The notes under the pieces are model-generated. The model saw only the letters and a list, made by a program, of their open reading frames with translations. It did not search any database and was not told the origin of the DNA. Made by a program: the position numbers and the translations under genes. From assembly GCA_035379625.1 (NCBI GenBank), contig DAOSVM010000001.1, forward strand, positions 159,600-223,599: a DNA stretch of 64,000 bases, read 5' to 3'. This stretch comes from Ignavibacteriales bacterium. Its GTDB lineage: Bacteria; Bacteroidota; Ignavibacteria; Ignavibacteriales; DAOSCP01. Positions 92 to 64,000 of this stretch are shown here, in pieces (within the stretch, counting starts at the first letter, position 1; every line of letters begins with the position of its first letter).

Positions 92-1879
92 TTATTTTTG
101 TTCAGGATTAACTGGTGTTTCAGGTACTTCTGGTTCTGGTTCAAAGCTTTGTAAATCGTTAGGATCAATTGTATTAACTTCAGCTTTCAAAATATCTTCA
201 ACTTTTACTTTTTCAAGTTTATGTGCTTTGATATATTCTTCAATTTCTTCTTCAGATTTATCTTTCAATACCGCTAAAGCACTTAATACAATTCTTTTCT
301 TTTCTTTGTTAAATTCAATAACTTTTAATTCTAATTCTGTATCTACTGGGAATCCAATACTTAAATTTTTAATTTTTGATGGTGATAATTGTTTAGCAGG
401 GACGAAGCCATCAACACCTTTAGGAAGTTCAACAATTACACCTTTTTCAATTATTCTTGCAACTTTAGCTGTTATAACTGTACCAACTTGATAGTCTTTT
501 TCAAAATCATCCCATGGATTAGGGAAAATTTGTTTGTGGCCTAATGAAATCTTTCTTTGTTCAGTATCTATTGACAATACAACAACTTCAATTTGCTCAT
601 TTTTCTTAACAATTTCACCGGGGTGTCTGATTTTCTTTGTCCAAGATAGATCAGAAATGTGAATTAAACCATCAACACCTGGTTCAAGCTCTACAAATAC
701 TCCAAATGCTGTGAGATTTCTTACAACTCCGGTATGTTTTGAACCAACTGGATATTTTTCCATCAACATTTGCCATGGATCAGGTGTAAGTTGTTTAATA
801 CCTAAAGATATTTTTCTTTCTTCTTTATCTAATGTAAGAATTACAGCTTCAACCATTTGTCCCATTGTAACAAATTGAGATGGATGTTTAATATGTTGAG
901 TCCAACTCATTTCAGAAATATGGATTAAACCTTCAATACCTTTTTCAATTTCAATAAATGCACCGAAATCAGTTAATGATACAACTCTACCTTTTACTTT
1001 ATCCCCAACTTTATATTTTTCTTCAATATTTTCCCAGGGATGTGGATAAAGTTGTTTAATACCTAAAGAAATTCTCTTTCTCTCTGGATCGTAATCTGTT
1101 ACAACAACTTTAATTTTTTCATCTAATTTAACAACTTCATTAGGATGATTAATTCTTCCCCAGCTTAAATCTGTAATATGAATTAAACCATCAACACCGC
1201 CTAAATCTACGAATACACCAAAATCTGTAATGGCTTTAACTGTACCTTCGAGAACTTGACCTTTTTGTAAATTATTGAGTAAAGCTTCTCTTTGATCTTT
1301 TGTTTTTTCTTCGATAATTACTTTATGTGAAACAACAATGTTTTCTTGTAAATGGTTAACTTTTACAACTTTAAAATCCATTGTTTGCCCAACTAAAGCG
1401 TCGAAATCTCTAATTGGTTTAATATCAATTTGAGAGCCTGGTAAGAATGCTTCCATACCGTAAATATCAACAACCATACCACCTTTAACTCTACGTAATA
1501 TTTTACCAGTAATAATTTCATCTTTTTCATAAGCATCGAGAACTCTTTTCCAAATTTTGATAAAGTCTGCTCTCTTTTTGCTTAAAATAATGTTGCCATC
1601 ACCATCATCTTCAACTTCAATAACAACATCAATTACATTACCAACTTTAATTTCTTCACCAGCATTGAATTCTGATTTAGAAATCATACCTTCTGCTTTA
1701 AAGCCAATGTCAACTGCAACATTATCATCGGTAACTCTTACAATTGTACCTTTGATAATATCACCAACTTTAACATTCTTAAATGATGAATCATACATAC
1801 TTGCTAATTGTTGCAACTCTTCATTTGTATATTCATCAGCATTCAGGAATTTTACAGGCTTTGTTTTAACATCACTCAT
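92..1879 (-). CDS. rpsA: 30S ribosomal protein S1 (six S1 RNA-binding domains)
   Basis: 595 aa. Repeated S1-domain pattern (G..v.G.V..i...G.fVdlg.g..GLiHiSe.sw) occurs six times; length and order are typical of bacterial RpsA. Confidence 0.95.
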
Positions 1880-26313: not shown

Positions 26314-26348
26314 AAAGCAGGCGAGCGTAAGCGAGCTTGCTTTTTTTT
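26314..26348 (+). terminator. Rho-independent terminator of the TPR gene (sequence duplicated, inverted, at 38304-38338)
   Basis: Imperfect GC hairpin AAAGCAGGCGAGC-GTAA-GCGAGCTTGC followed by T8. It lies 22 nt after the stop. Confidence 0.7.
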
Positions 26349-26369
26349 ATTTTAAAAAATACTTTTCAT

Positions 26370-26970
26370 TAGCTCAGACGGTGTAAGCTTAAAGCCCGTG
26401 CACCGAGCGGCGCACGGGCGGGCTTACGCCCAAAATATATTTCACTAATTAAACCATATCTTACATAATATCAACGACATACAACATTTATGCATATACC
26501 AAAATAACTATTGACTGAAAATTTTCCAAAGTAATAGCAAACTTAAAGTATTAAAATATTTTCGTAATTACGATATAATTGTATTTTTCGATATATTGAC
26601 TTTTCTAAAAATATATTTGTATTTACAATATAATTGTATATACGATATATCAATAATCTTTAATAATATATTTGTAAAGACAATATAATTGATTTTACGA
26701 TATAATAGAAAATGCAATTATATTATAAAAAAAATCGCATCAAATATAAAAATTTGAAAGACTAGATATTAGTTTTGTCAAGAGAAATATTTATTGTGAA
26801 ACACACCATCAGACCTGCGTTCAGACGCTGCATCTAGGAAGTTGTGGAATTATGAAACCGTAAGCTACACTTTGTAAGGTGATAAAGAAAAGATTTTTAG
26901 CGGGCCTTCGGCCCGCTGCCCCTTGCGGCTTTCCACAAGCAGCAAGGGGCTAAGCTTATACCGTCTGAGC
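26370..26970 (+). repeat. Full copy 1 of a non-coding MITE-like structured repeat (module A on the left, module B on the right)
   Basis: Left terminus is TAGCTCAGACGGTGTAAGC (26370-26388). Right terminus is GCTTATACCGTCTGAGC (26954-26970), its reverse complement with 1 mismatch. Module A hairpin is at 26394-26419 plus GGGCG-N6-CGCCC. Module B hairpins are GCCCCTTGC/GCAAGGGGC (26918-26950) and AGCGGGCC-TTCG-GGCCCGCT (26899-26917). The core aligns with copies 2 and 3 in reverse complement. No ORF of 60 aa or more. Confidence 0.85.
26556..26727 (+). repeat. Phased iteron array inside copy 1 (3 x 55-bp units plus one offset palindrome)
   Basis: ATAT(A/T)TTTGT/CGT unit starts at 26556, 26611 and 26666. 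Palindromes are TACGATATAATTGTA (26569), TACAATATAATTGTA (26624) and GACAATATAATTGAT (26679), exactly 55 bp apart. A fourth motif with a flipped centre, TGCAATTATATTATA, sits at 26713 (+34). A CGATATA box lies about 20 bp after each palindrome. Confidence 0.85.
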
Positions 26971-27011
26971 CCAGAGATAGAATATTTTTTTTTTTAATAG
27001 AGACTTTATTT

Positions 27012-33723: not shown

Positions 33724-33802
33724 TTTTTACACCCGTATGATTTTGAAATAAATAAAAAGTTACAAAAAAATATTAAAATTAATCAATAAAATATTAACAT
33801 TA

Positions 33803-33877
33803 TTTAATAAAAATGTGGATAACTTTTATATAACACCTACATCACATTGATACACAGTATGTTATAGTTATCCACAT
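33803..33877 (-). terminator. Long-stem intrinsic terminator of the MFS permease gene
   Basis: Perfect 12-bp arms ATGTGGATAACT (33813-33824) and AGTTATCCACAT (33866-33877), plus an inner ATAACA/TGTTAT pairing. The minus-strand read is followed by TTTTTATT. It lies 17 nt past the stop at 33894. Confidence 0.65.
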
Positions 33878-33893
33878 TAGGTTAATAATATGT

Positions 33894-35111
33894 TTATATT
33901 TGAGGCTTATAACCTTTGAAACCAAAAAATGAAATGTAAAGATAACATAAGACTGGTAAAATAAATGCGTGGTGTATACCAATATTATCAGCAATAACGC
34001 CTTGTATAACTGGAATTATAGCGCCACCAACAATTGCCATACATAATAAACCAGATCCTTTTTCAGTAAAACGACCCAATTTTGCCAAGGATAGTGAAAA
34101 AATTGTAGGAAACATTATGGAATTAAAAAATCCAACTAAAAGTATAGAAAATACTGCTACATATCCATTAGTTAACATCGATAGAATAACCAAAACAGAA
34201 GCCATAATTGCATTTATTGCTAATAACAAATTTGGTTTTATGATTCTTTGCAAGGCTGAACCTATAAACCTACCAACCATCGCACCGCCCCAATAAAAAG
34301 TAACAAATTTTGCTGCATCAGCTTCCTTTAATCCTACTAAAACATTAAAATAATTAACAAGAAAACTTCCTATTGACACTTCGGCTCCAACATATACAAA
34401 TATAGCAACAACACCTAATACTAAATGTTTATATTCAAATATACTTTTATGTTTTTTCTCACTAATTTCCTCTGCTTCTGCATCAGTTGTATGTACAATT
34501 TTAGGTAATTTTATAAAACTAAATAATATCCCTAATCCAACCAAAACAACTGAAATTACAAAATATGGCATTTTAACAGTTGCAGCAGATGATACACTAC
34601 TTAATATCAAAACACTCCCAATATATGGTGCTATTGTTGTGCCTAGTGAATTAAAGGCCTGCGTTAAATTCAATCTAACAGAAGCTGTTTCTGGTTTTCC
34701 TAATACAACAACATATGGATTTGCTGCTACTTGTAAAATCGTAATTCCACTTGCCAGAATAAATAATGCTACAAGGAATAAAACATAACTTAAAAAATTT
34801 GCTGACGGAATAAACATTAAACTTCCAATTCCAGCTGTAATCAATCCAACAACAATACCTTTTTGGTAACCTATTTTTTCAATTAACATACCCGCAGGAA
34901 TAGAAATTATAAAATAAGCCGTAAAAAAACTAAATTGTATTAACATAGCTTGAGTATAATTCAAGGAAAAGGAAGATTTTAAATGTGGTATTAAAATATC
35001 GTTTAAGCAAGTAATAAATCCCCAAATAAAAAACAACATCGTCAATATGGATAAATAAAATCCATTACTCTTGCTATTTTTTACGACAAAATTTTGATGA
35101 CCAATTTCCAT
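33894..35111 (-). CDS. MFS sugar transporter (FucP/GluP glucose-galactose-fucose:H+ symporter family)
   Basis: 405 aa with 12 TM-like segments. 'FFIWGFITCLNDILIPHLK' is the characteristic N-terminal motif of the FucP/GluP family. Confidence 0.8.
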   Translation of the reverse strand: MEIGHQNFVVKNSKSNGFYLSILTMLFFIWGFITCLNDILIPHLKSSFSLNYTQAMLIQFSFFTAYFIISIPAGMLIEKIGYQKGIVVGLITAGIGSLMFIPSANFLSYVLFLVALFILASGITILQVAANPYVVVLGKPETASVRLNLTQAFNSLGTTIAPYIGSVLILSSVSSAATVKMPYFVISVVLVGLGILFSFIKLPKIVHTTDAEAEEISEKKHKSIFEYKHLVLGVVAIFVYVGAEVSIGSFLVNYFNVLVGLKEADAAKFVTFYWGGAMVGRFIGSALQRIIKPNLLLAINAIMASVLVILSMLTNGYVAVFSILLVGFFNSIMFPTIFSLSLAKLGRFTEKGSGLLCMAIVGGAIIPVIQGVIADNIGIHHAFILPVLCYLYISFFGFKGYKPQI

Positions 35112-37709: not shown

Positions 37710-37730
37710 AAAAAAGTTTTTCATATTACT

Positions 37731-38282
37731 TAGCTCAGACGGTGTAGGCATAGCCCACGTGCGGCGTTGCCGCACGTGGGCAGCGGGCCGGAACGGCCCG
37801 CTAAACTCTTCTCTTCAACACCTTACATACAGTGATGTTTTTGGGCCTAAATATTCAAATCTTTATCAATACGTACCAGTTTACAATTGGTACAATTTTT
37901 TTTATAATAAAATTGTATTTACATTTATATCGTAAAATCAATTATATTGTATTTACAAATAAATTATTAAAAATTACTGATATATCTTATATACAATTAT
38001 ATTGCAAGAACAAATATGTTATTAGAAAAGTGAATATATCGAAAAATACAATTATATCGTATACGCTAATTTTAGCAATATCTATATTATTTATTCACTT
38101 TTTTTACTTAATCTAATCTATATTAAAAAAATATATAAACAACATTTAGTTATTTAGTTAAATGTAAAAATATAAAATATATAGGTAAAAATTTATTAGA
38201 ATGTATTGGGGGAAAAATTTAGGCGTCAGCCCGCCCGTGCGCCGTACGGCGCACGGGCTTTATGCTTACACCGTCTGAGCTA
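37731..38282 (-). repeat. Full copy 2 of the MITE-like structured repeat (inverted relative to copy 1)
   Basis: TAGCTCAGACGGTGTAGGC (37731-37749) and GCTTACACCGTCTGAGCTA (38264-38282). Module B is on the left: extra hairpin CCCACGTGCGGC/GCCGCACGTGGG (37754-37780) plus AGCGGGCCG-GAA-CGGCCCGCT (37782-37802). Module A is on the right: GCCCGTGCGCC-GTAC-GGCGCACGGGC (38233-38258). The ORFs at 37832-38116 and 38219-38470 are not conserved in other copies. Confidence 0.85.
37903..38061 (-). repeat. Phased iteron array inside copy 2
   Basis: Palindromes ATCAATTATATTGTA (37937), TACAATTATATTGCA (37992) and TACAATTATATCGTA (38047) are exactly 55 bp apart. The offset motif TATAATAAAATTGTA is at 37903 (34 bp before the first). 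A degenerate in-phase site is at 37882. Confidence 0.8.
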
Positions 38283-38303
38283 ATGAAGAGTATTTTTTTA
38301 AAA

Positions 38304-38338
38304 TAAAAAAAGCAAGCTCGCTTACGCTCGCCTGCTTT
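38304..38338 (-). terminator. Rho-independent terminator of the barrel gene (inverted duplicate of 26314-26348)
   Basis: The reverse complement reads AAAGCAGGCGAGCGTAAGCGAGCTTGC followed by T7, near-identical to the terminator at 26314. It lies 20 nt past the stop at 38358. Confidence 0.7.
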
Positions 38339-38357
38339 AAATATTACAACATTATGA

Positions 38358-48549: not shown

Positions 48550-48568
48550 ATTTTAAAACAATTCTCAT

Positions 48569-49138
48569 TAGCTCGGACAGTATAAGCATAGCAGCGGGCC
48601 GGAACGGCCCGCTAAAAATCTTTTCATCATCACCTTACCAAGTGTAGCTCAACGGTTTCATAATTCCACATCTCCCAAAATTCAGTGCAGATTGTGTGTT
48701 TGACTGAAAAATTTTTTTTTGTCAAAGCTAAAAATTAGCCTTAAAATTTTATGTTTATTGCGGATTTCTATATAATATAATTGTATTTACAATAATATCA
48801 TACAACCAATTATATTGTATATACAAAAATATTTTTTAAAATTGTAACTATATCGTGTATGCAATTATATTGTAAATACGAATATATTTTTAAAAATTGC
48901 GAATATATCGTAATTTTTAATATATAGGAATAACGATATTACGTATACACTTTTTTTTACATAATTTAATCAATCTTAAAAAAAATTTTAAACAATATTT
49001 AGTTATTTAGCTAAATGTAAAAATATATAAAATATTGATAAAAAATCTAATGTAAGATAGTAGATGGAAAATTTTTGGGCGTTAGCCCGCCCGTGCGCCG
49101 CAAGGCGCACGGGCTTTATGCTTACACCGTCTGAGCTA
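48569..49138 (-). repeat. Full copy 3 of the MITE-like structured repeat (same orientation as copy 2)
   Basis: TAGCTCGGACAGTATAAGC (48569-48587) and GCTTACACCGTCTGAGCTA (49120-49138). Module B is AGCGGGCCGGAACGGCCCGCT (about 48592-48612), with no extra hairpin. The conserved block 'GGTTTCATAATTCCAC' equals the reverse complement of copy 1's 'GTGGAATTATGAAACC'. Module A is GCCCGTGCGCC-GCAA-GGCGCACGGGC (49089-49114). No ORF of 60 aa or more. Confidence 0.85.
48771..48874 (-). repeat. Phased iteron array inside copy 3
   Basis: The offset motif TATAATATAATTGTA is at 48771. Palindromes ACCAATTATATTGTA (48805) and TGCAATTATATTGTA (48860) are 55 bp apart. The next in-phase site (48915) is degenerate. 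Confidence 0.75.
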
Positions 49139-49266
49139 AATATGTTAATATTTTTTAATTTTTAAAATAATTTTTCAAGATTTTTATAATTCTTTTATTT
49201 ACAAATAATTGTTTCATATTTTTCATTATTTAATTATATTTGTATTTTGAACTATTAGGATATTAA

Positions 49267-53679: not shown

Positions 53680-53850
53680 TTTTAATTGACATTTAAAAAT
53701 ATTTTTACTATATTTGACTAAGAAGTTTACTATATCGCTGTTTTTTTGAAGAAATTAACAAAATAATTGAACCTTTTGATATATTTTTGTTGTTTAGTTT
53801 ATAGTTTATTATTGTTATTAAAAGTTTGAAAAAAGTTCTTATAATAAAAT

Positions 53851-53947
53851 GTTCAGTCGGGATTTATGGCGACTTGCACCGACTTTAAACAAATAGCTAA
53901 ATAGCCGAATAAGTTTAAAACCTTCGCTATTTAGCGAAGGTTTTTTT
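53851..53947 (+). promoter_or_regulatory. Candidate SAM-II/SAM-V-class riboswitch with terminator/antiterminator, leader of the metY operon
   Basis: TATAAT at 53840-53845. Stem AGTCGG (53855-60) pairs with CCGACT (53879-84), enclosing 'GAUUUAUGGCGACUUGCA'. The 3' tail is 'AAAUAGCUAAAU' (SAM-II-like GAUUU...UUGCA...AAAGCUAAA features). GCTAAATAGC (53896-53905) is perfectly complementary to GCTATTTAGC (53926-53935), inside the terminator CCTTCGCT-ATTT-AGCGAAGG plus T7 (53921-53947). Confidence 0.45.
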
Positions 53948-54021: not shown

Positions 54022-55308
54022 ATGCCAGAAAATACATTGAAATTCGAAACATTAGCATTGCATGCGGGGCATGATATCGATCCAACATTATCACGTGCTG
54101 TTCCTATTTATAGAACTTCATCTTATGTATTTAAAGATACCGAACACGCAGCTAATCTTTTTGCACTTAAAGAGTTGGGCTATATATATACACGCTTAAT
54201 GAATCCAACACAGGATATTCTTGAGAGAAGAATTGCCGCTCTTGAAGGTGGTGCTGCAGCATTAGCTATTGCATCTGGTACATCTGCAATTTTTTATTCA
54301 ATAATAAATATATTATCTGTTGGAGATGAATTTATTTCAGCTAATAATTTGTATGGTGGAACTTATACTATGTTTAATGATATTCTTCCACAATTCGGTA
54401 TAAAAGCTAAATTTGTTGACGTTAGAGATCCAAGAAATTTTCAAAAAGCAATTACTGAAAAAACTAAAGCAATATATATAGAAACAATTGGCAATCCTGC
54501 ACTTGATGTTGCTGATATAGAGGAAATAGCTAAAATAGCCCATGAGAATGAACTTCCATTAATCGTTGATTCTACTTTTACAACACCATATTTACTTAGG
54601 CCTATTGAATATGGAGCAGATATTGTCGTCCATTCCTTAACTAAATGGATAGGCGGACACGGAACGGGGATTGGAGGAATTATTGTTGATGCTGGAAAGT
54701 TCAATTGGCAAAATCCGAAATTTAAGCTTTATAATGAACCAGATCCTAGTTATCATGGATTAAGATATGCTCATGATTTAGGTGATTTTAATCCAATTGC
54801 ATTTGCAATGAGAGCTCGACTTGTACCTTTAAGAAACTTAGGCGCTTGTATTTCTCCTGATAACGCTTGGCTATTCTTACAAGGTATTGAAACTTTAGCT
54901 TTAAGAATGGAAAGACACTCACAAAATGCATTAAAGATTGCTGAATATTTAACTAATCATCCAAAAGTAAAGTGGGTACGATATCCAGGATTGCCCGATG
55001 ATCCATCTTATCCTTTAGCTAAAAAATACTTAAAAAATGGCTTTGGTGGGATGGTTGTATTTGGAGTTAAAGGCGGTGCCGATGAAGGAAGAAAATTTAT
55101 CGAAAATTTGAAAATTTTCTCACATTTGGCAAATGTTGGAGATGCTAAATCATTAGCTATTCATCCAGCAACAACAACTCATTCACAGCTCAATGAGGAA
55201 CAACAGTTAGCTGGTGGTATTACACCTGAACTTATCAGATTATCTGTTGGAATTGAAAATGTGAATGACTTAATCCAAGATATTGAAAATTCATTACATT
55301 TAATATAG
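54022..55308 (+). CDS. metY: O-acetylhomoserine aminocarboxypropyltransferase (sulfhydrylase)
   Basis: 428 aa. 'FETLALHAG', 'YTRLMNPT' and 'HSLTKWIGGHG' (PLP lysine) are canonical for the MetY/Cys-Met PLP family. Strong SD AAGGAG. Confidence 0.9.
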   Translation: MPENTLKFETLALHAGHDIDPTLSRAVPIYRTSSYVFKDTEHAANLFALKELGYIYTRLMNPTQDILERRIAALEGGAAALAIASGTSAIFYSIINILSVGDEFISANNLYGGTYTMFNDILPQFGIKAKFVDVRDPRNFQKAITEKTKAIYIETIGNPALDVADIEEIAKIAHENELPLIVDSTFTTPYLLRPIEYGADIVVHSLTKWIGGHGTGIGGIIVDAGKFNWQNPKFKLYNEPDPSYHGLRYAHDLGDFNPIAFAMRARLVPLRNLGACISPDNAWLFLQGIETLALRMERHSQNALKIAEYLTNHPKVKWVRYPGLPDDPSYPLAKKYLKNGFGGMVVFGVKGGADEGRKFIENLKIFSHLANVGDAKSLAIHPATTTHSQLNEEQQLAGGITPELIRLSVGIENVNDLIQDIENSLHLI

Positions 55309-60576: not shown

Positions 60577-60742
60577 AAGCTAAATTAGGCTATCTGAAAG
60601 TTTTAAAAAAATATTTGATATTTACTTTTTAAATAGCTTCTTTATATTGTATTAAATATGTGTTTAACTAGATGTTTGTAAATAGAATATATAAATTTAT
60701 AATATTTTTGTGAAATCAGAGAAGCAATGAAAAAGAATTTTT

Positions 60743-60804
60743 GGGCGTTAGCCCGCCCGTGCGCCGTACGGCGCACGGACTTTATGCTTATACCGTCTGA
60801 GCTA
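60743..60804 (-). repeat. Truncated copy S1 of the repeat family (module A plus terminus; possible decayed core remnant back to about 60637)
   Basis: GGGCGTTAGCCCGCCCGTGCGCC-GTAC-GGCGCACGGAC TTTATGCTTATACCGTCTGAGCTA. The hairpin is at 60755-60780 and the terminus at 60786-60804. The terminus lies 9 nt from the cyclase stop codon. Upstream 'TTGTAAATAGAATATATAAATTT' and 'TATATTGTA' resemble core iteron sequence. Confidence 0.8.
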
Positions 60805-60813
60805 AATATAGTA

Positions 60814-63640: not shown

Positions 63641-63669
63641 TTGCTTTATAAATAATTATAAAAATATAT

Positions 63670-63735
63670 TAGCTCAGACGGTGTAAGCATAAAGCCCGTG
63701 CGCTGTGCGGCGCACGGGCGGGCTAACGCCCAAAA
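63670..63735 (+). repeat. Truncated copy S2 of the repeat family (terminus plus module A)
   Basis: TAGCTCAGACGGTGTAAGCATAAAGCCCGTGCGC-TGTGCG-GCGCACGGGCGGGCTAACGCCCAAAA, with the hairpin at 63694-63719. A near-iteron, TACAACATAATTGGA, follows at 63756-63770. It sits between the obg stop and the permease start. Confidence 0.8.
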
Positions 63736-63778
63736 TTTTTCCAATAAAGAAGATATACAACATAATTGGATATATCTT

Positions 63779-64000
63779 TTAGTAATTTTCCAAACTATTT
63801 AATCTTTCCCAAAGATAATCTATTAAATCTTTAACACCTATACCTGCAACAGATGACAAATAAAAAATAGGCCCATCATAACCATCAATTTTAATCTTTT
63901 TTATATCATTTAATACATCTTCTGTTAAAGCATCAATTTTTGTAAAAGCTAAAACAAAAGGTTTTTTACTCATTTCTTCTGAATAAGTTAATAATTCTTT
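63779..64000 (-). CDS. obg: GTPase Obg, C-terminal part (5' end lies beyond the window)
   Basis: 'KPFVLAFTKIDAL' (NKxD-equivalent region) and 'YLSSVAGIGVKDLIDYL' (SA.tg.G...L) match the end of the Obg G-domain. The reading frame is open to the window edge. Confidence 0.75.
   Translation of the reverse strand, partial: KELLTYSEEMSKKPFVLAFTKIDALTEDVLNDIKKIKIDGYDGPIFYLSSVAGIGVKDLIDYLWERLNSLENY

Follow-up and report, generated by a model that had tools for sequence, protein, structure and literature searches.

Plasmid centromere and iteron arrays, such as parC of R1 and pSK41, sopC of F and the omega repressor heptads, are found at one or a few loci per replicon, beside par or rep genes. MITEs, the miniature inverted-repeat transposable elements (PMC3049150, PMC3184786), among them Correia/NEMIS of Neisseria and RUP of pneumococcus, are small, AT-rich and non-coding, have terminal inverted repeats (TIRs) and strongly base-paired ends, and occur in many dispersed intergenic copies at sites that can be filled in one genome and empty in a relative. 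The BOX elements of Streptococcus pneumoniae (boxA–boxB(n)–boxC) are composite, with pairing end modules around a tandem internal module (PMC3049150). Repetitive extragenic palindromic (REP) sequences and bacterial interspersed mosaic elements (BIMEs) consist of GC-rich hairpin units, single or in inverted pairs around an AT-rich linker that binds IHF in BIMEs, and lie preferentially after genes and between convergent genes (PMC3733652). Here we analyse a 64,000-nt stretch of DNA from an Ignavibacteriales bacterium (the window; assembly GCA_035379625.1, contig DAOSVM010000001.1, positions 159,600–223,599), in which a dispersed non-coding repeat carries arrays of palindromes phased at 55 bp. 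An initial annotation had read these arrays as an operator or a centromere-like iteron array.

We identify the array, with high confidence, as the invariant central module of a MITE/BIME/BOX-like mosaic repeat family of uncultured Ignavibacteriales (~27% G+C). The element is probably mobile. Its 55-bp phasing is inherited, not separately maintained, and neither the operator nor the centromere reading is supported. The explanation that fits best overall joins this mosaic-repeat identity and the inherited phasing with an array that acts in cis for the element; we put its probability at roughly 0.55. The family is a previously undescribed intergenic repeat of a very AT-rich, uncultured lineage, and the searches made returned no match in Rfam, the literature, phage records or viral contigs.

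Overall architecture of the element

Full copies measure 349–641 bp and are bounded by 20-nt TIRs (TTAGCTCAGACGGTGTAAGC...) and GC-rich hairpins. From left to right, each comprises a TIR, a GC-rich hairpin, a left AT-rich module, the array, a post-array module, a short A-rich stretch, two GC hairpins and the inverted TIR. The three copies in the window align end to end. TTAGCTCAGACGGTGTAAGC or its reverse complement occurs at 8 sites in the window (0.01 expected), and TTAGCTCAGACGGTGTAAGC and its complement GCTTAYACYGTCTGAGCTAA stand at the two ends of 21 copies of the family. The build is mosaic: the left module and the post-array module each exist in two versions that combine freely, and all copies share the ends and the array. 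The array is thus the sole internal module shared by every sub-family.

Copy 1 (26369–26973, forward strand; 605 bp; nhmmer score of 492 bits) combines a type 1 left module with variant B of the post-array module. Its left end unit (26369–26431) is made of the TIR TTAGCTCAGACGGTGTAAGC (26369–26388) and the GC-rich hairpin GCCCGTGCACC/GGCGCACGGGC with an outer stem extension (26394–26431). The array (26569–26727) is followed by the post-array module (26728–26873), which in variant B has an insert of ~70 nt relative to variant A, and by the 3′ module (26874–26950), which comprises GTAAGGTGATAAAGAAAAGATTTTT, hairpin hp1 (26899–26917) and hairpin hp2 (26918–26950). The right TIR (26954–26973), GCTTATACCGTCTGAGC followed by CCA, is the reverse complement of the left one. 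Copies 2 and 3 are on the reverse strand, both with a type 2 left module. Copy 2 (37730–38283; 554 bp) has variant A and an array at 37903–38061; copy 3 (48568–49139; 572 bp) has variant B, no hp2, and an array at 48771–48930 in which the first unit is degenerate. Two solo end units, each a TIR plus hairpin without an array, lie at 60732–60805 (reverse strand), with ~50 nt of left module, and at 63669–63742 (forward strand), with part of the left module up to 63803. Beside the second unit, at 63740–63790, AAGATATACAACATAATTGGATATATCTT is an isolated core motif (1 mismatch) within an inverted repeat of 8 bp, perhaps what is left of an array.

Among 20 distinct left-end units the hairpin stems are kept and the loops are variable. 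RNAalifold on eleven copies gave terminal hairpins only, with two compensatory base pairs in hp2, and Rfam gave no match to the element: nothing relevant for the whole window at the gathering threshold, and only chance-level matches for copy 1 at E ≤ 10. We therefore rejected a known RNA family. No open reading frame (ORF) is conserved in position, strand or frame among the element copies. A toxin or peptide gene (LDR or type I toxin–antitoxin) was dismissed on this ground; the GTG-started frame of 31–32 codons that runs through the hairpins is broken by differences in loop length. An origin from a tRNA was considered because the start of the TIR, TAGCTCAGACGG, resembles a tRNA D-arm, and was set aside because ARAGORN detected none in the window. 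Nor do integron attC sites or cassettes fit: housekeeping genes fill the 11 kb from one end unit to the next, and every element is closed by two inverted ends.

Distribution and genomic context of the family

To gather copies without selecting on the palindromes, we scanned metagenomes with the 3′-module pattern, which yielded 19 loci, mostly from metagenome Ga0116168; L numbers below denote the sequence records analysed. The family survey covers 268 kb from several Ignavibacteriales metagenome bins and at least five assemblies, and contains 21 full copies and ~15 solo or partial ones on more than 15 contigs, in unrelated gene contexts. The element is also carried by a metagenome-assembled genome named Ignavibacteriales bacterium. 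When the window is compared with the collected loci, the elements alone match and the genes do not. The host DNA has a G+C content of ~27%, and window proteins carry type IX secretion sorting domains. The window belongs to a 208-kb JGI metagenome contig, Ga0116246_10000039, and relatives of a nuclease encoded beside the element are annotated as Ignavibacteria, Ignavibacteriaceae or Ignavibacterium album. A fourth full copy, detected with the profile hidden Markov model only, lies 4.4 kb past the end of the window (~68.4–69.0 kb; L067 4621–5226). It keeps the 55/55/17/17 layout, with motifs that begin at 206, 261 and 316, a secondary copy 17 bp past each of the last two, and an inverted copy at ~350. 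Copy density is four full copies in 45 kb at the window, and at least 17 copies on ~780 kb of contigs of one metagenome. Intervals between successive end units, at 26372, 38280, 49136 and 60802, are 11.9, 10.9 and 11.7 kb, and the first 26 kb of the window have no unit. This ~11-kb regularity is probably a coincidence, since spacing on other contigs is irregular (3–6 kb).

For 17 copies both neighbouring genes could be called: nine lie between convergent genes, eight between tandem genes and none between divergent genes, and many directly follow a terminator. This placement at gene 3′ ends is the usual one of REP, BIME and MITE-type repeats, and it speaks against an operator acting on the genes alongside. 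The same terminator-like hairpin with T-run (AAAGCAGGCGAGCGTAAGCGAGCTTGCTTTTTTT) follows three unrelated genes, at 26314–26348, at 38303–38340 (reverse strand) and to the left of the element in L043, and it also occurs, inverted, at the right flank of the element in L041 (5766–6296), and so forms a repeated module in its own right. About 20 nt (ATTTTAAAAAATACTCTTCA) that separate the terminator from the left TIR recur behind different terminators, which could mean that the element prefers certain targets or that its boundary lies further out.

A strain with 99.5% identity has the element at the copy 1 site. In L061, where the neighbouring protein is 79% identical, the site has no element: the TPR gene ends in an ordinary terminator and is followed by a methyltransferase gene, and the comparison gave no clean empty site. 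Several assemblies break inside the element, which thus explains contig breaks and offers a marker for strain typing. In L015 (1727–2572) and L056 (22–880), the element and ~400 bp of non-coding DNA and tRNA genes are 98–100% identical (99–100% for the element), and the flanking genes are 66–84% identical; this could reflect recent recombination or transfer, or a chimeric contig joined at a conserved tRNA or repeat. We did not accept this pair as evidence of constraint, since the identical block also spans the tRNA genes and begins at a contig end.

Comparison with described repeats

The element resembles MITEs in its small size, AT-richness, lack of coding sequence, TIRs, strongly base-paired ends and many dispersed intergenic copies. 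It differs in the lack of a demonstrable target-site duplication or cognate insertion sequence (IS), in ends that are ~65-nt TIR-plus-hairpin units also found alone, and in a modular interior with a fixed, nested tandem array. With BOX it shares its architecture, a composite build of pairing end modules around a tandem module. However, the number of boxB modules varies from 0 to 8 between loci or strains, whereas the array here is fixed at ~2.8 units with occasional deletions only, and the host phylum is different. Like REPs and BIMEs, the element has inverted pairs of hairpins and lies at gene 3′ ends. Its unit, however, is ~65–75 nt long, with an 11-bp stem and a 9-bp outer stem (REP, 20–40 nt with stems of 8–9 bp and a terminal GTAG/CGTC tag), and its linker is 300–500 bp long with a repeat architecture of its own. 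A CGTC-tagged REP was rejected because stem and loop sizes do not fit and because GACG lies inside the TIR and is not an unpaired terminal tag. Short direct tandem repeats with a terminal inverted copy in AT-rich DNA also recall plasmid centromere and iteron arrays, but the element is present in dozens of chromosomal copies with no par or rep genes nearby. A literature search found no paper combining Ignavibacteria with MITEs. On present evidence, the element is an ordinary, though neatly built, mosaic repeat.

Anatomy of the array

Motif search, alignment, a sequence logo and Tandem Repeats Finder together define the array. The palindrome TACAATNNNATTGTA matches copy 1 at 26569 (1 mismatch), 26624 (0) and 26679 (3 mismatches, beyond the 2-mismatch limit of the search), copy 2 at 37937, 37992 and 38047 (2, 1 and 1 mismatches) and copy 3 at 48805 and 48860 (2 and 1 mismatches). 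The initial annotation had placed the palindromes at these positions, and the distance between them in the window arrays is indeed exactly 55 bp; Tandem Repeats Finder independently returned a period of 55 for the three arrays (2.8, 2.5 and 1.9 copies; 71–86% matches), with a nested period of 17. A motif with a flipped centre lies 34 bp past each array, at 26713, 37903 and 48771, again as described. With up to 2 mismatches, TACAATNNNATTGTA has 32 matches in the window, 12 of which fall inside the three arrays (<1% of the window); the remaining 20 are at chance level (17 ± 4 expected from shuffled sequence).

The 55-bp unit is of higher order and is built (17+17+21 bp) from a 17-bp sub-repeat whose core is CAATATAATTG; the array holds ~2.8 such units, and one inverted copy closes it. 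The CGATATA box that had been described ~20 bp from each palindrome is present after each of them, as a portion of a second, degenerate copy of the 15-mer (TACGATATAATTGTA), which starts 17 bp downstream of each palindrome. The rest of each unit (21–23 bp) resembles a third 17-bp sub-repeat carrying an insertion. Motif sites therefore lie at offsets 0, 17, 55, 72, 110 and 127, with the inverted site at 144. In copy 1 these correspond to M1 (26569–26583), M1b (~26586–26600), M2 (26624–26638), M2b (26641–26655), M3 (26679–26693), M3b (26696–26710) and the inverted M4 (26713–26727).

Of the palindrome consensus first proposed, it is the core CAATATAATTG alone that is well preserved; at the right outer edge GTA is frequently replaced by GCA, GAT or GCT. 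A logo pooled from 126 motif instances reads TG-n4-TAC-r-ATATAATTG-n4-TAC in a 17-nt register, and its most informative positions, C2 and G12, are 10 bp apart. When the seven motif copies in the consensus are compared, the 13-nt core hardly varies, unlike the 4-nt linkers. Because the inverted copy ends the third unit, M3b and M4 together form a near-perfect 30-bp dyad, which is the best-kept stretch of the array (0.83–0.87, in the measure of conservation defined below). The central ATA triplet has one orientation across all direct motif copies; this is a prediction of duplication and fits duplication better than a symmetric site. What stands of the earlier description is thus that one motif, partly dyad-symmetric, is repeated in an iteron-like array of fixed layout, and that the dispersed repeat around it lacks its own protein gene. 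Among the parallels drawn earlier, the one with transposase subterminal binding sites may still apply.

The palindromes had also been placed on one face of the helix. The DNA helix has 10.5 bp per turn. At that pitch, 55 bp make 5.24 turns, a rotation of ~86° per repeat, and the 17- and 38-bp spacings would also put sites on different faces, so the proposed alignment is not supported.

Conservation of the array

Conservation was measured as the mean pairwise identity per column over 18 distinct copies, which are on average 75% identical and hence informative. The sequence between the palindromes had been thought to drift more than the palindromes themselves. This was not confirmed: the three palindromes score 0.784 and the rest of the array 0.784 (Mann–Whitney p = 0.81), and all seven motif copies score 0.783 against 0.786 for the spacers, a result that speaks largely against the palindromes as binding sites. 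Phased palindromes in a few copies of a repeat are thus not in themselves evidence of selection.

Over all copies the array scores 0.78, the left AT-rich module 0.62, the post-array module 0.65 and the ends 0.84–0.91. Within sub-families the values are 0.77–0.85 for the array, 0.77–0.78 for the post-array module and 0.71–0.73 for the left module; the gap between the array and its neighbours therefore arises mostly because the neighbouring modules exist in two versions. Consensus G/C positions are retained better in the array (0.81–0.85) than in the left module (0.69–0.73; p = 0.02–0.04), but no better than in the post-array module. M1–M2 and M2–M3 distances are 54–56 bp in every copy that holds those units, and gap openings number 59 in 162 columns of the array against 105 in 171 of the left module. 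The palindromes, then, enjoy no special protection; what is constant in the family is the array as a whole, and its layout is stable. Strain pairs were discarded as a test of constraint, as the window, L064, L003 and L004 are 99.3–100% identical over copy 1 and give no power.

These values bear directly on a neutral explanation, in which the array is a decayed internal tandem duplication of the founder element, carried passively and conserved through shared descent and the lack of alternative versions of this module. Equal conservation of palindromes, secondary motifs and spacers is what it would predict, as is an array no better kept than the post-array module within sub-families. Divergence among the units of one array is also similar to that between orthologous units of different copies, partly deleted arrays persist, and an array indel separates closely related strains. 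But a passive relic sits less well with an array that is present in every full-length sub-family, when both neighbouring modules have two versions, or with spacing held within 1 bp despite ~25% sequence divergence. Fewer gap openings per column than in the left module, better retention of G/C positions, which are the first to go under AT-biased mutation, and a 13-nt core that stays nearly invariant across motif copies with differing linkers likewise count against it. We regard a pure relic as doubtful, though little less plausible than the cis-acting role proposed below.

A possible cis-acting role of the array

A 17-bp sub-repeat (TAC-R-ATATAATTG-nnnn) was amplified into the 55-bp higher-order unit, of which the array holds ~2.8, with one inverted copy closing it. 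This amplification preceded the diversification of the family, and all copies that retain the array have kept its layout, to within 1 bp. The array would serve the element and not the neighbouring genes, as an AT-rich, multi-site platform for protein binding or bending that is needed in cis to copy or move the element. Candidate binders would be the mobilising enzyme or an architectural protein that joins the two hairpin ends. Such a platform has parallels in Mu, Tn7 and IR/DR elements, with their internal transposase sites, and in BIMEs, where an IHF site separates the two REPs. We favour a cis-acting role because the array is the one internal module present in every sub-family and has a fixed layout; taken on its own, this component of our explanation is tentative and falls clearly short of probable. 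If the array does bind a protein, the family would offer a compact natural model of how the ends of a mobile repeat are assembled.

Several observations weigh against this explanation. The conservation values give binding sites no specific support, as palindromes and spacers are equal, and within sub-families the array does not exceed the post-array module. One or two units have been lost in L042, L051 and L054, and no copy has extra units. Against the nearest strain (99.5% identical), copy 1 differs within its array by a 1-nt indel and a substitution; this comparison, which has little power, reveals no extra constraint. All motifs but the last point one way, which is not the mirror layout of classic transposon ends. 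As for mobility, TA flanks GCTC...GAGC in 16 of 19 copies on the left and 11 of 19 on the right, but TTA...TAA is itself an inverted repeat to which these flanks may belong, and the 19 copies show no longer direct repeat and no demonstrable target-site duplication. Neither an autonomous partner, nor a transposase, nor an IS with matching ends was found in the 268 kb; all-against-all BLASTP of 247 ORFs gave no multi-copy protein gene, and no RAYT (Y1 transposase) gene was seen among the collected loci. One candidate partner, at L053 2444–4493, was rejected: its facing end units, 2 kb apart, enclose only a 256-aa repeat protein without a Pfam match, and no array. That protein consists of four internal repeats of ~60 aa, and ~900 bp of non-coding DNA are enclosed with it. 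The pair is probably two solo units, each directly after the end of an outer gene, and not a cargo-carrying element.

Promoter and host-protein readings

In a second alternative, the element carries its own promoter or promoters for a short RNA that ends in the two GC hairpins, with the array in the part of a tandem promoter or an upstream element. A perfect TATAAT is present in every motif. TTGATT-N18-TACAAT stands at the 3′ end of the array, and T(T/G)GAAT-N16-18-TACAC(T/A) lies directly before GTAAGGTG; in copy 1 the latter is TGGAAT-N16-TACACT, within the variant B module, and its function as a promoter is putative. These –35-like and –10-like hexamers are kept in variants A and B although the intervening spacer is replaced, and promoter-like sites are enriched in the element (12 versus 4.2 ± 1.8 in shuffles). 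GTAAGGTGATAAAGAAAAGATTTTT and hp1 are the best-conserved internal part, also in copies not picked by that pattern, but the conservation of GTAAGGTG and hp1 is partly inflated, both having served as the search pattern. The –35-like elements for the TATAAT boxes are weak, AT-rich DNA yields many false promoter matches, and the consensus used may not be that of Ignavibacteriota. No T-run follows any of the hairpins, and beyond them there is neither covarying structure nor an Rfam family. We think this reading unlikely.

The closest database match to the array also carries TATAAT. In a plasmid collection the array had two weak matches only, both AT-rich repeats with this hexamer, whose E-values are over-optimistic and which serve as leads only. 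The better one (E = 5e-8) is to the 17-bp tandem repeats upstream of ospD of Borrelia burgdorferi, which have the same period and a very similar unit (TATAATTGATATTAAAA versus TATAATTGATTTTACGA). Those repeats, however, are a single promoter-proximal locus on a linear plasmid of an unrelated phylum, and the similarity is probably convergent, in AT-rich, –10-like sequence. A literature search on the ospD repeats was likewise empty. A phage or plasmid origin was rejected, as phage records and viral contigs gave no match to the element and the plasmid matches amount to weak similarity between AT-rich repeats.

The weakest alternative takes up the centromere-like reading at the level of the host, with a dimeric helix-turn-helix (HTH) or ribbon-helix-helix (RHH) protein bound to the sites and the dispersed elements acting as chromosome-organising, insulating or centromere-like loci; this is improbable, because Pfam annotation of the window and 10 kb on either side shows housekeeping and signalling genes and no ParA, ParB, RHH, Xre, rep or transposase gene, and because dozens of dispersed chromosomal copies do not resemble a plasmid centromere or iteron. 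Outside the elements the motif is also all but missing, for example from a regulator's own promoter. With up to 1 mismatch, the 13-mer has 76 matches in 11.5 kb of elements and 11 in the other 256 kb, 7 of which lie in elements cut by contig ends; the 4 genuine outside matches are at chance level, so that there is no separate, regulon-like set of sites, and this speaks against an operator too. The dyad symmetry of the core (CAAT-N3-ATTG), with its two most informative positions 10 bp apart, the well-kept M3b/M4 dyad and the presence of four full and two solo units within 45 kb, partly at ~11-kb intervals, are in favour of a host protein, but palindromes kept no better than spacers, the constant orientation of the central triplet in direct copies, the irregular element spacing in other contigs and the tolerance of truncated arrays are not. 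A weak similarity (E = 9e-5 over 76 nt) links the array to the spacer that separates the genes of a ParA-like ATPase and a small RHH protein in Lactococcus plasmids, although E-values are over-optimistic for AT-rich matches. In plasmid pUCCL641A (NZ_PP589743.1; L058 2500–2570), this spacer, before a 75-aa RHH protein gene, carries TTTACAATATAT repeats, and its stretch TTTACGATATAATGCAAATGGAATTATATTATA closely resembles the array end, TTTACGATATAATAGAAAATGCAATTATATTATA in the window.

More speculatively, the family could be a vehicle that spreads a multi-site landing pad for one dedicated HTH or RHH-type protein to dozens of sites between convergent genes, where arrays of ~7 sites and cruciform-prone GC hairpins would form nucleoprotein complexes that organise the chromosome or insulate transcription or supercoiling. 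If true, it would be a chromosomal, repeat-borne counterpart of plasmid centromere arrays; we consider it a long shot.

Other features of the window

A link between the element and an origin of replication was examined and dropped, as DnaA-box-like 9-mers are at chance level in the window (26 versus 23 expected). Two perfect DnaA-box 9-mers (TTATCCACA) lie, inverted, inside a 44-nt inverted repeat at 33789–33901, between radical-SAM and MFS transporter genes, and the cumulative GC skew has its minimum near 39–40 kb of the window.

Near the left end of the window, three 261-bp tandem repeats (67–71% identical) at 483–1090 fall in an ORF with multiple S1 RNA-binding domains (92–1879, reverse strand); by this annotation, they are the repeated S1 domains of ribosomal protein S1. 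Rfam gives a match to the SAM_alpha (SAM-II) riboswitch at 53846–53920 on the forward strand (46.9 bits; gathering score, 36). It lies upstream of a gene for a Cys/Met-metabolism PLP enzyme (54022–55308), which is followed by homoserine-pathway genes, and its host belongs to the Ignavibacteriales and is not an alphaproteobacterium.

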